Under the pieces are notes generated by a model. That model was not told the DNA's origin. It saw only the letters and a program-made list of their open reading frames with translations, and did not search any database. A stretch of 24,461 bases of DNA. Source: Minisyncoccia bacterium. GTDB lineage: Bacteria; Patescibacteriota; Minisyncoccia; UBA6257; JAAZHW01. This document shows positions 10,315 to 24,461 of this stretch, piece by piece. Made by a program: the position numbers and the translations under genes. Where the stretch lies: the NCBI GenBank assembly GCA_041559835.1, contig JBFFCO010000001.1, positions 1 to 24,461 on the forward strand, written 5' to 3'. Positions within the stretch are counted from its first letter, which is position 1; each line of letters begins with the position of its first letter.

Positions 10315-10402
10315 GGAGGTGTGGCCGAGTGGTTTATGGCGCTGGTCTTGAAAACCAGTTGGGGGCAACCCCTCGGAGGTTCGAATCCTCCCACCTCCGC
10401 CA
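10315..10402 (+). tRNA. tRNA-Ser (UGA), long variable arm, encoded CCA
   Basis: GGAGGTG/CACCTCC acceptor, CTGGT-CTTGAAA-ACCAG anticodon arm, long variable arm, GGAGG-TTCGAAT-CCTCC, G73-CCA. Confidence 0.97.
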
Positions 10403-10583
10403 CGTAAAAAATTGCTTCGCAATTTCAACGTGGCTGGGACGTTTAAATCCTGAAAAGATTTATTACGTCCCGCCCTTGCCTCGCCGAAGTCCGCCTCTGG
10501 CGGACGAAGGCGGGCTTCACCTCGCCGAAGTCCGCCATGCAAGAAGTTGTCTTGCGATTTCAATATGGTTGGAATATTTGAAT
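10399..10583. repeat. Stacked palindrome and repeat cluster in the tRNA-Ser trailer
   Basis: Hairpin GCCACGT..ACGTGGC (10399-10434), hairpin GGGACGT..ACGTCCC (10436-10471), a module at 10474-10514 containing TCCGCC-TCT-GGCGGA, and a degenerate direct repeat 10396-10448 / 10531-10583. Confidence 0.8.
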
Positions 10584-17368: not shown

Positions 17369-17517
17369 TGTCACCCCTGTCCGCCAGAGGTGGCACATCC
17401 GCCTCAGGCGGGCGGATAATACTCCGGCAGCCTGCCCGCCTATGGCGGAGGGTCTAAAAACCATGGCAAGCAAGTGGTAATAGCGAGGCAGAGATTCCCG
17501 CCTTCGCGGGAATGACA
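17369..17517. repeat. Inverted doublet of TGTC-tagged palindromes; the left copy is interrupted by CCGCC-N3-GGCGG modules
   Basis: TGTCACCCCTG[insert]AGGGTCTAAAAACCATGGCAA...AGATTCCCGCCTTCGCGGGAATGACA. The flanks are collinear with the intact doublet at 20683-20766. Confidence 0.8.
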
Positions 17518-17686
17518 AGAGAGATATCTCAAATTTTGATTTTTTTATTGTTTTTTTATACCTTGCTAATTGTTCCATTTTACCCCAATGATAACTTTTT
17601 ATCAAATATAGCACATCCTCAATATTTCTTAATAAAATAAAACAAGGAAGCCGGATTGATCCAAACTTCCTCATTTTGTTTTGAAT

Positions 17687-20682: not shown

Positions 20683-20766
20683 TGTCACCCCTGCGAAGGC
20701 AGGGGTCTAAAATCCATGGCAAAATAAAATTACATGATATAGATTCCTGCTTTCGCAGGAATGACA
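20683..20766. repeat. Intact inverted doublet of TGTC-tagged palindromes (REP/REPIN-like)
   Basis: TGTC-ACCCCTGC-GAAG-GCAGGGGT-CT and, inverted, TGTC-ATTCCTGC-GAAA-GCAGGAAT-CT. Confidence 0.85.
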
Positions 20767-20804
20767 AAGAAAAAAATAAAGATGATAAAAAATATTGTGC
20801 ACCC

Positions 20805-21935: not shown

Positions 21936-22069
21936 TATAATTCCCCTCTTATAGAGGGGTGGCTCGCCTCATGCGAGACGGGCATTGCCCTGCCGAAGCC
22001 CCTTGCCCTGCCGTAGCTTTAGCGGAGGCGGGTTGGCGAAGGCGGGGTGTTTTCCCCGCCAAAGGCGGG
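21936..22069. repeat. Nested palindromic repeat cluster upstream of recA
   Basis: A CCCCTCT..AGAGGGG-family element carries a 32-nt module, which carries a second 32-nt module. CCCGCC-AAA-GGCGGG follows. Confidence 0.8.
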
Positions 22070-22123
22070 ATTTCCCCCTCTTCTTCATTACCCTCCCATT
22101 ATAAAACAAAAAAAATCCATCTA

Positions 22124-22152
22124 TTGACAAATAGATTTATATATGCCAAATT
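22124..22152 (+). promoter_or_regulatory. Probable promoter of the orphan gene at 22202
   Basis: TTGACA-17 nt (ending TGC)-CAAATT (weak -10). Palindrome ATCTATT-GACA-AATAGAT (22119-22136) covers the -35. Confidence 0.5.
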
Positions 22153-22201
22153 GATATTAGATATTTTGTTGTAAAAAATTTAAAAATAGGAGGTATTGAA
22201 A

Positions 22202-22870
22202 ATGAGAGACGAAACATTTCTTGAAAGAATATATCCATCCGTTTATCCCTCTTTTTGGCCAATTTGGTTGGCGGTTGCCCTTTCGATTTTTTCCGCCCTT
22301 GCTCTTTCATTAGAAAACTATGTCTTGGGAATTACCTGTATTTTAATCATTGTTTTGTCTGTTGTCCTGTTTGTTTCGGCAATAGATAAATTTGTATACT
22401 CTTCGAAAAAATTAATTTTAGCCAAAAATAATGGCAATTTAGAATTAATGAAGAAGATTCTCCAGAGGAAAGAGCATGTTGCCCTTGTGCTTGATAAGGA
22501 AAGAGAATTTCAAATAGAAATCCCTTTATCGGCGAGCCAAAATGGTCTAATGGCAATTATTCGTTGCAAAACATGGCTTCAACCGAAATTAAATTGGCTT
22601 GATTTTTTAGAATTGGAAGAAATCTTTGAGGTATGGCAAAAAGGCAAAGAAAATGAATATCTGCCTCTGATTGAAAAATTCGCCATTCAACCCATTAAAG
22701 AAGCAATTGAGAAATCTGGAATGTCATCTCTGCTTGTTAAGGGTTTTATTGAACAAAGAATTAATGAAAGTGATCTCAAAGAGGGATTATCAAGGCAACT
22801 GAGCGAAATAAAACATTCCAAAAATTTCATATTTTTGCCTAAAATTGAAGAAGGGGTTTTGATTAAGTAA
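22202..22870 (+). CDS. Orphan hypothetical protein with two N-terminal TM helices
   Basis: GGAGGT 7 nt before the ATG at 22202; two hydrophobic segments followed by a soluble helical region. Confidence 0.75.
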   Translation: MRDETFLERIYPSVYPSFWPIWLAVALSIFSALALSLENYVLGITCILIIVLSVVLFVSAIDKFVYSSKKLILAKNNGNLELMKKILQRKEHVALVLDKEREFQIEIPLSASQNGLMAIIRCKTWLQPKLNWLDFLELEEIFEVWQKGKENEYLPLIEKFAIQPIKEAIEKSGMSSLLVKGFIEQRINESDLKEGLSRQLSEIKHSKNFIFLPKIEEGVLIK

Positions 22871-23690: not shown

Positions 23691-23742
23691 TAATTCCCCT
23701 CTATTAAAGGGGAATTAGATTCCTGCCTTCGCAGGAATGACA
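23691..23742. repeat. CCCCTCT..A(A/G)AGGGG hairpin fused to a TGTC-tagged palindrome
   Basis: TAATTCCCCTCT-ATT-AAAGGGGAATTA followed by GATTCCTGCCTTCGCAGGAATGACA. Confidence 0.85.
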
Positions 23743-23794
23743 AAGACGGGGCGATTATTCTATTTCATAATTCAAAGTTATTGAAATAAAAAGC

Positions 23795-24186: not shown

Positions 24187-24232
24187 TGATGGGTGATAAT
24201 TGGTGGTATAGTATAATAATAAGGTGGAAAAA

Positions 24233-24309
24233 CACCCCGTCTCAGCCACGTTGAAATTGCGAAGCAATTTCTTTCGTGGCGAGCCACCCCTCTATTAGAG
24301 GGGAATTAG
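24233..24309. repeat. CACCCCGTCTC..GAGCCACCCCTCTATTAGAGGGG element carrying the tRNA-Ser-trailer hairpin in its loop
   Basis: The flanks match the reverse complement of the element at 21940-21982. Segment 24238-24281 matches the reverse complement of 10398-10441 at 41/44 nt. Confidence 0.85.
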
Positions 24310-24461
24310 CAACCCCAAAGAAAATCAAAATTTCGAATATCTAGAGAGTAAATAGAAACAAATTAAGGAATGGGGAGCGATGATCTATATATTCAAATGT
24401 TTGAGTTTTGCCGACTTTCAAATAGAGGCAAAACGAGTTTTTGAATTAATCATCGCGGAGA

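Follow-up and report, generated by a model that had tools for sequence, protein, structure and literature searches.

The nesting of three tiny hairpin repeats in the window, i.e. the whole 24,461-nt stretch of DNA analysed here, is real, and these mini-elements are recently mobile: in the genome of a sister species this site is present but lacks the inner 64 bases, and the 64-nt block, which consists of one M unit inside another (M[M]), is present or absent as a single piece at GACGGG^GTGTT between sister lineages. The window is a whole contig of a Minisyncoccia bacterium genome (G000; 760 kb, 33% GC, 138 contigs, 92.9% complete), and the sister-species genome from the same genus (G001) is 97% complete and ~93% identical to G000 over 513 kb. 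Three families of mini-element are involved, all of which have proliferated, namely H (~50 nt), which is restricted to the genus, M (30–32 nt), which is found across phyla, and the CCGCC-N3-GGCGG mini-hairpins (13–22 nt).

The positions of the elements are collected in Table 1. The M unit is an imperfect hairpin with a 6-bp stem of the CCCGCC/GGCGGG type, a purine internal loop of the GAA/GAA type and a short apex. On direct reading, removal of the 32-nt M unit at 22001–22032 joins 21983–22000 to 22033–22046 and gives a sibling M of 32 nt, and excision of both units leaves GAGACGGG|GTGTTTTCC, which matches the reverse complement of 24225–24243. The host of the pair is a two-hairpin H of ~50 nt (21940–21982 plus 22047–22053), entered at GACGGG^GTGTT. 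The pair also parses as the duplication of an 18-nt and a 14-nt arm, for which two events are needed as against one. An earlier, sequence-only reading of the window had proposed three levels of palindromic modules that can be removed to restore their host, and both the direct reading and the orthologous empty site described below bear this out; it had also correctly placed a tRNA-Ser hairpin, the 36-nt T hairpin at 24245–24280, in the loop of the H copy near 24233. Its third module, at 10474–10514, does have M arms around TCCGCC-TCT-GGCGGA, but the mini-hairpin substitutes for the 6-nt apex of M, i.e. it is a replacement and not a clean insertion.

Table 1. Coordinates and strands of the repeat elements discussed, numbered from the first nucleotide of the window.
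Feature	Position	Strand	Remarks
H element, left part	21940..21982	+	hairpin 1, hairpin 2 and GGG of the target CGGG
H hairpins 1 and 2	within 21940..21982	+	hairpin 1, CCCCTCT-TAT-AGAGGGG; hairpin 2, GGCTCGCC-TCAT-GCGAGAC
Outer M, 5' half	21983..22000	+	CATT-headed subfamily
Inner M	22001..22032	+	CCTT-headed, 32 nt; in outer-M apex, GAAGCC / TTGG, junction ambiguity zero
Outer M, 3' half	22033..22046	+	TTGGCGAAGGCGGG
H element, right end	22047..22053	+	GTGTTTT
Mini-hairpin	22055..22069	.	CCCGCC-AAA-GGCGGG; adjoins H; also present in G001
Second H copy	24228..24307	-	CGGG^G site empty; hairpin-2 loop replaced by 36-nt T hairpin (24245–24280)
T hairpin	10398..10441	+	overlaps 3' GCCA of tRNA-Ser(TGA); 93% complementary to 24238–24281
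M unit with occupied apex	10474..10514	+	apex occupied by TCCGCC-TCT-GGCGGA mini-hairpin
Truncated MITE copy	24322..24461	-	MITE of ~270 nt with 21-nt terminal inverted repeats; adjoins H; contig ends in MITE

The T hairpin (36–44 nt, GCCACG...GAAATTGC-TTC-GCAATTTC...CGTGGC) begins inside the GCCA 3' end of tRNA-Ser and takes the place of the hairpin-2 loop in about 14 H copies of G000. A scan of the window with Rfam returned four tRNAs and nothing else. The whole nested region was also considered as one long coaxial hairpin and this was rejected, since its folding as ssDNA reaches a z-score of only -2.4, which is weak because the GAA/GAA internal loops remain unpaired.

The clearest evidence for mobility comes from the alleles of this site. 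In the orthologous intergenic region of G001 the flanks are 98–100% identical and exactly the 64 nt are missing; the ambiguity of the indel junction is 4 nt (CGGG), so that 21979–22042 is equivalent to 21983–22046. The search for filled and empty alleles in metagenomes that the sequence-only reading had suggested found both: Logan contigs of the probable source run (X1) span 21941–22400 with zero differences and represent the filled form, and contigs from run X2 (a second sample, G001-like) and run X3 (a different study and a third lineage) skip exactly 21979–22042. The filled and the empty alleles have the same rare hairpin-2 loop, TCATGC, so homologous exchange would be left with at most 6 nt of homology on the left, and gene conversion from a paralogous H[M[M]] was judged unlikely on these grounds. 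Of the three lineages only one has the filled state, so that on parsimony insertion fares no worse than loss; a hairpin-promoted precise deletion between CGGG repeats would yield identical alleles, and the polarity of insertion is not proven.

The sequence-only reading had implied a stepwise nesting at this site, for which the composites of G001 suggest a different history. At one CGGG site of G001 (C19) there is an M[M] composite that is 97% identical to the 64-mer of the window, and at another (C2:52003) the composite holds an extra 22-nt unit, resulting in four levels. Since near-identical composites are found at two other CGGG sites, a ready-made 64-nt M[M] composite with intact outer ends probably landed in this H as one unit, both M levels arriving together.

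For both the 22-nt mini-hairpin units and M, precise gain or loss is seen at apices and within stems of other repeats. Comparison of G000 with G001 gave at least 19 non-redundant GC-rich indels, and about 11 of these ~19 fall within a further repeat or hairpin, whereas only 14% of the genome consists of GC islands. A 22-nt unit, which consists of CCGCC-N3-GGCGG and a 9-nt tail, is recurrently present or absent between the two genomes, its sites being the apex of M (C6, C18), H hairpin 1 (C15), a mini-hairpin carried by a MITE (C51) and a unique hairpin loop (C74); other indels comprise a 28-nt M, an extra 32-nt M and a 68-nt M[M] immediately before a start codon. Searching for filled and empty pairs within genomes turned up 411 GC-rich events that look like insertions, their lengths peaking at 22 nt (n = 49), 31–32 nt (n = 44) and 64 nt (n = 8).

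Copies of the H pattern number 51 in G000 and 15 in G001, and none was found in 39 other genomes of the family and order; at least 12 stem variants with compensatory changes are seen in its hairpin 2, and an H ancestor without hairpin 2 was sought and none was found. M cores number 39 in G000 and 38 in G001, with 1–3 copies in 14 of 39 other genomes, and the TCCGCC-N3-GGCGGA mini-hairpin is present in 63 and 56 copies, respectively, with up to 24 elsewhere, both M and the mini-hairpin being spread across the order. H and the NTS-like family TGTCATTCCCGCGAAGGCGGGAATCT (about 80 copies in G000, 24 in G001) are thus each ~3-fold more numerous in G000, while M and mini-hairpin counts are similar, indicating that the families expanded at different times.

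The MITE is non-coding, ~270 nt long with 21-nt terminal inverted repeats (CCCAAAAAAATCTAAAATTTC / GAAATTTTGATTTTCTTTGGG), and has about 14 copies in G000. Many G000 contigs, the window included, end within it (e.g. C70, C65 and C69), and H often abuts its ends. A double mini-hairpin of 30 nt is inserted in the MITE copy on C51 and in the majority of those in G001. A 30-nt head-to-tail pair, i.e. two TCCGCC-N3-GGCGGA hairpins exactly 15 nt apart, is frequent in other genomes of the order, among them G028 and G030, and this pair, which is the same as the insertion in the MITE copies, may be a unit in itself.

The junctions are specific, yet they are made without fixed-length duplications. CATT-headed M is specific to CGGG^ sites, and the 3' end of M itself reads CGGG: 22 of the 26 CATT-headed copies stand directly after CGGG, which belongs either to H (GACGGG^G) or to the 3' end of another M, giving tandem arrays. 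Of the H copies, 5 of 68 in G000 and 6 of 28 in G001 have a filled CGGG site, and the hairpin-2 sequences differ among the filled copies. Units found in M apices are CCTT- or CCCT-headed and come after GAAG(C/T)C with an ambiguity of zero, the inner-M junction of the window (GAAGCC / TTGG) recurring in at least 15 other M-in-M nests of the two genomes, and CTT(C/T)-headed M come after T runs. Microhomology at 22-nt units is 0–6 nt and is longest in hosts with CCCGCC. M and the 22-nt units do not behave as MITEs of DDE transposases, given a junction ambiguity anywhere between 0 and 6 nt, with none at all for M-in-M. The earlier rejection of DDE transposition is upheld by the lack of DDE-type features.

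Random junctions, or nested forms no commoner than side-by-side ones, had been named by the sequence-only reading as outcomes that would speak against it, and neither is seen. The CGGG^ preference of CATT-headed M has been described above; by an approximate, regex-based count, there are 16 nested M openings in each genome, and 14 (G000) and 27 (G001) M units with a mini-hairpin in the apex like that at 10474–10514, as against 8 and 5 side-by-side junctions. Of the 22-nt units, 85% are located within hairpins and 37% in loops, a modest enrichment over the 21% for neighbouring positions, and M-like events fall in loops in 32% of cases against 34% of neighbouring positions, i.e. there is no loop enrichment for M, in an event set inflated by alternative parses of tandem and nested arrays. 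The proposal that units insert precisely into hairpins is hence supported by filled and empty orthologous sites but proved too narrow, as insertions are also found in stems and beside units, M is not enriched in loops and tandem arrays are common.

M is not confined to these two genomes. The pattern GCCGAAG-NN-TT-NN-CGAAGGCGGG was found at 120 or more loci in genomes labelled as many phyla, including the isolates Bradyrhizobium hereditatis and Reyranella soli, a few of the matches being chance coding matches. Among the matches listed, positions outside the search pattern are also conserved, with the head CTTGCCC or CCTGCCC, and the apex covaries, both pairs being formed in 101 of the 119 copies listed compared with a shuffle mean of 71.5 and a maximum of 81. 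A repeat of at least 3 nt between the flank and the M 3' end is present in 21 of the 119 copies listed versus 3 in the control, so that the CGGG rule is a trait of a subfamily. M-type units of 30 nt in other phyla (loci L077, L079, L122, L116, L135 and L109) have tRNA, RNase P RNA and ORF settings: at tRNA 5' ends GCGGG stands on both sides of M, so that the tRNA is intact, and M is also found inside RNase P RNA genes and once in frame, as 10 codons, in a glycosyltransferase-like ORF. Searching the literature for M by its exact sequence led to no paper.

Considering which enzymes might move these units, Y1_Tnp (PF01797), TnpB (PF07282) and RVT_1 had no match in either G000 (92.9% complete) or G001 (97%), and control genomes did give matches in the PF01797 search. 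The gene family that is associated with the hairpins is instead that of single-domain GIY-YIG proteins, and the HUH-like option of the sequence-only reading gives way to it. Single-domain GIY-YIG ORFs of 78–121 aa, beside tRNAs and flanked by hairpins, number 2 in G000 and 3–4 in G001; for five of them Pfam gives PF01541 alone, covering nearly the whole length, and NCBIfam gives nothing above its cut-off. As judged from their sequences, they appear to conform to the Ssn description of a single GIY-YIG domain of about 90–130 aa with no extra DNA-binding domain.

The linkage between such genes and M is seen at G001:C8, where the GIY-YIG gene is flanked by inverted M cores. Of 401 genomes surveyed in the phylum, 198 have a homologue of this gene, and the best 30 homologue loci across the phylum contain 11 M-core hairpins versus 1 in a reversed-sequence control (background 3.2 M cores per 100 kb; Poisson p = 2e-4 for these 30 loci). 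Ten of the 11 are within 150 nt of the GIY-YIG ORF ends, and at two loci (L196 and L200) they stand on both sides and inverted, so that repeats on both sides of a single-domain GIY-YIG gene, the arrangement described for SRMs, are found at G001:C8 and at these two homologues. The outer stem takes in the CCA end of a neighbouring tRNA, with a duplicated fragment of a tRNA 3' end at the other side. Another GIY-YIG cassette, at G001:C10:23452–23817, is located inside a partial tRNA-Gln duplication, is bordered by TCCGCC-N3-GGCGGA hairpins and is polymorphic between the sisters, being absent at the intact tRNA-Gln of G000 (C37). Genes of the G001:C8 and C10 types are both absent from the G000 assembly (93% complete, 138 contigs).

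The correlation with enzyme genes called for by the sequence-only reading gave a divided answer across 41 genomes: the mini-hairpin count rises with the count of small GIY-YIG genes (rho 0.51, with no phylogenetic correction), but there is no correlation for M (rho 0.12). A GIY-YIG gene is present within 4 kb in 3 of the 120 cross-phylum M loci listed, and in two of these three the gene sits in tRNA genes without M cores; this neighbourhood count is uninformative because the element would be trans-acting.

On balance, and from sequence comparison, we lean towards hairpin mini-elements that would be moved in trans via ssDNA, in dependence on GIY-YIG nucleases of the Ssn kind and with joining by the host or by template switching. 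SsnA itself is a 94-aa GIY-YIG protein which binds a hairpin and cuts ssDNA upstream of it (PMC11893778). Mobilisation would take place on single-stranded, folded DNA, where small single-domain nucleases of this kind would bind the hairpin and nick beside it, and the joining may be carried out by host replication and repair or by template switching at 3–6-nt microhomology. The hairpin of each element would carry the short motifs used by the next insertion, so that a nest forms, and a nested composite with intact outer ends would then move as one unit. The GIY-YIG cassettes at tRNA 3' ends, flanked by the same hairpins, would be the autonomous partners. What the comparisons show directly is that units are gained and lost precisely, that their sites are specific, that stems and apices covary and that nuclease genes are linked to hairpins; the cutting, the single-stranded intermediate and the joining are what we infer. 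A single-strand or hairpin-guided process, as the sequence-only reading had supposed, is the best fit. Several points count against a nuclease-dependent route: a nuclease by itself does not transpose DNA, the inner-M junction GAAGCC^TTGG is outside the CGGG rule, microhomology ranges from 0 to 6 nt, M has neither loop enrichment nor a correlation with GIY-YIG counts, few of the cross-phylum M loci listed (3 of 120) have a GIY-YIG gene within 4 kb, and the C8- and C10-type genes are missing from G000.

Among the alternatives the strongest is spread with no dedicated enzyme, through template switching during replication (copy choice), which we regard as rather unlikely. A nascent strand ending in CGGG or another motif would stall at a hairpin, re-anneal beside a donor, copy the unit and return, and such a route would be in keeping with the variable microhomology of 0–6 nt, the flank/3'-end direct repeat in only 21 of the 119 cross-phylum copies listed, the commonness of tandem arrays and arm duplications and the fact that no transposase was found in G000 or G001. 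It leaves unexplained, however, why a near-identical 30-nt M with a conserved GAA/GAA loop occurs across phyla, why M has a fixed orientation relative to genes and why M cores form inverted repeats around GIY-YIG genes, and many of the junctions have zero microhomology.

The orientation of M relative to genes also bears on its function. In the orientation CCCGCCTTCG...CTTCGGCG(A/G)G(G)CGAAG, 42 of 77 copies end 5–8 nt short of the ATG that opens an ORF of 60 aa or more, compared with 0 of 60 copies in the opposite orientation (G000 and G001 together). Examples are found in G000 at C11:8234, C18:8671 and on C41, and two of the indels between the sister genomes put M at just this position. M may provide the translation-start region or affect its form, and a function as RNA or DNA, in addition to mobility, is likely. 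A stronger version, in which the modules are mainly functional RNA or DNA (5'-UTR, translation-start region, terminators) under selection and their mobility is a matter of recombination or gene conversion, seems improbable to us; the orientation bias and the covarying stems do argue for it, whereas in other phyla M is also found within genes for tRNA and RNase P RNA and as an in-frame part of ORFs, copy number differs ~3-fold between the sister genomes, filled and empty orthologous sites leave at most 6 nt of flanking homology to an exchange, Rfam has no match and a function is in any case compatible with mobility.

HUH-type single-strand transposition of REP-like hairpins (Y1, RAYT or IS200/IS605-type) is very doubtful. 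The insertion point of M is on the 3' side of one fixed tetranucleotide, the same that M has at its own 3' end, and no duplication of constant length accompanies it; this pattern resembles the left and right cleavage sites of IS200/IS605, but the PF01797 search, to which control genomes respond, found no match in G000 or G001, and TnpB was likewise not found in them. An assembly artefact, a concern raised in the sequence-only reading and a natural one in a genome heavily fragmented at repeats (138 contigs), is in effect ruled out by the independent Logan contig of the source run, which spans 21941–22400 unchanged, and by the restriction of the empty form to diverged lineages.

More tentatively, and going beyond the nuclease-dependent movement favoured above, M, the mini-hairpins and H could be the non-autonomous partners of GIY-YIG cassettes that target tRNA 3' ends, in a transposase-free movement of 13–64-nt hairpins via ssDNA which would operate in many phyla and lead to self-nesting; here M stands 5–8 nt upstream of about 40 start codons, where it may belong to the translation-start region. 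If hairpin-specific ssDNA nucleases, and not transposases, spread units of 13–64 nt, this would explain ultra-small repeats from cyanobacteria to Neisseria to CPR, a class whose mobility has so far been without a mechanism. The question can be tested in the present genomes, which offer clean gains and losses between sisters, a defined CGGG^ target and candidate nuclease genes adjoining hairpins. The repeats also break up the assemblies of these small genomes, and about half of the sites are directly before start codons, so the repeats may affect gene expression.

The kind of element described here is already known, from the SRM/Ssn system, SDRs, REP/RAYT and RPEs. The sequence-only reading knew of no formal description of such a hierarchy; SDRs (Elhai et al. 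2008, cited in PMC5861425 and PMC4390886) and Ssn-related motifs (PMC11893778) are, however, comparable systems already described. The Ssn-related motifs (NTS/SRM) are, like the families here, directional hairpin repeats of 20–50 nt in tens to hundreds of copies, and the NTS-ssnA-NTS arrangement, whose IS-like look and possible expansion of repeats were remarked on by Chenal et al. 2025 (PMC11893778), likewise places hairpins on both sides of a small (~80–120 aa) single-domain GIY-YIG gene. One family of G000, TGTCATTCCCGCGAAGGCGGGAATC, is almost exactly the published Neisseria NTS (PMC11893778). The full SRM description (a directional hairpin of 20–50 nt in many copies with the consensus CGTCATTCCCGCGMAVGCGGGAATCYRG) applies to the TGTCATTCCCGCGAAGGCGGGAATCT family only, and not to M, H or the mini-hairpins. 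In the window, NTS-like hairpins lie at 17491–17521, 20683–20710, 20740–20770 and 23716–23746; their form, TGTCA-(8-bp stem)-GAAG-(stem)-TCT, matches the Neisseria NTS/dRS3 consensus (ATTCCC-N8-GGGAAT, with GTCA upstream), and compensated stem variants include CCCCCGC, TTCCTGC and TGCCCGC. The Ssn study covers ssDNA cleavage and the effect on transformation, and not repeat mobility or nesting (PMC11893778). Compared with the Ssn system, the genomes analysed here have other hairpin families (M, mini-hairpin and H) and cassettes at tRNA 3' ends with a duplicated tRNA fragment, and it is precise gain and loss and nesting that are documented.

SDR4–6 of the Nostocaceae (Elhai et al. 2008, Genome Res 18:1484) are repeats of 21–27 nt with features of mobility, and SDR5 inserts between nucleotides 3 and 4 of HIP1 (PMC4390886, PMC5861425); SDRs were reported from Nostocaceae only (PMC5861425). 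Tiny repeats inserted precisely at a fixed position of another short motif are common to SDRs and the elements here, the likeness being one of behaviour only, as in the 22-nt unit with its 49 filled/empty pairs and in M at CGGG^; H was found in the genus only. SDRs also nest within one another, and we know of no enzyme for them. The phylum and the sequences differ from those of SDRs, M is found in many phyla and a candidate nuclease is associated with the elements here.

REP/BIME and REPIN elements with their RAYT (Y1) transposases have in common with the present families that they are extragenic palindromes with a conserved tetranucleotide at the foot of the hairpin; both gather into mosaics, and for both a mobilisation in trans, as ssDNA, is assumed (PMC3116915). 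The Y1 HUH transposase gene that defines REP/RAYT was not found in G000 or G001, and compared with REP/RAYT the units are smaller and nested in one another. Rickettsia palindromic elements (RPEs, 100–150 nt) and the GC clusters of yeast mitochondria are GC-rich palindromic mini-insertions of AT-rich genomes, sometimes in frame in genes or inside one another. To our knowledge their mechanisms are also without an explanation, and their likeness to the elements here is one of description. To these systems the present analysis adds a clean empty site for a nested composite in a sister genome, the CGGG^ rule, evidence for the movement of composites as units, the linkage of M cores to GIY-YIG genes and the association of M with start codons.
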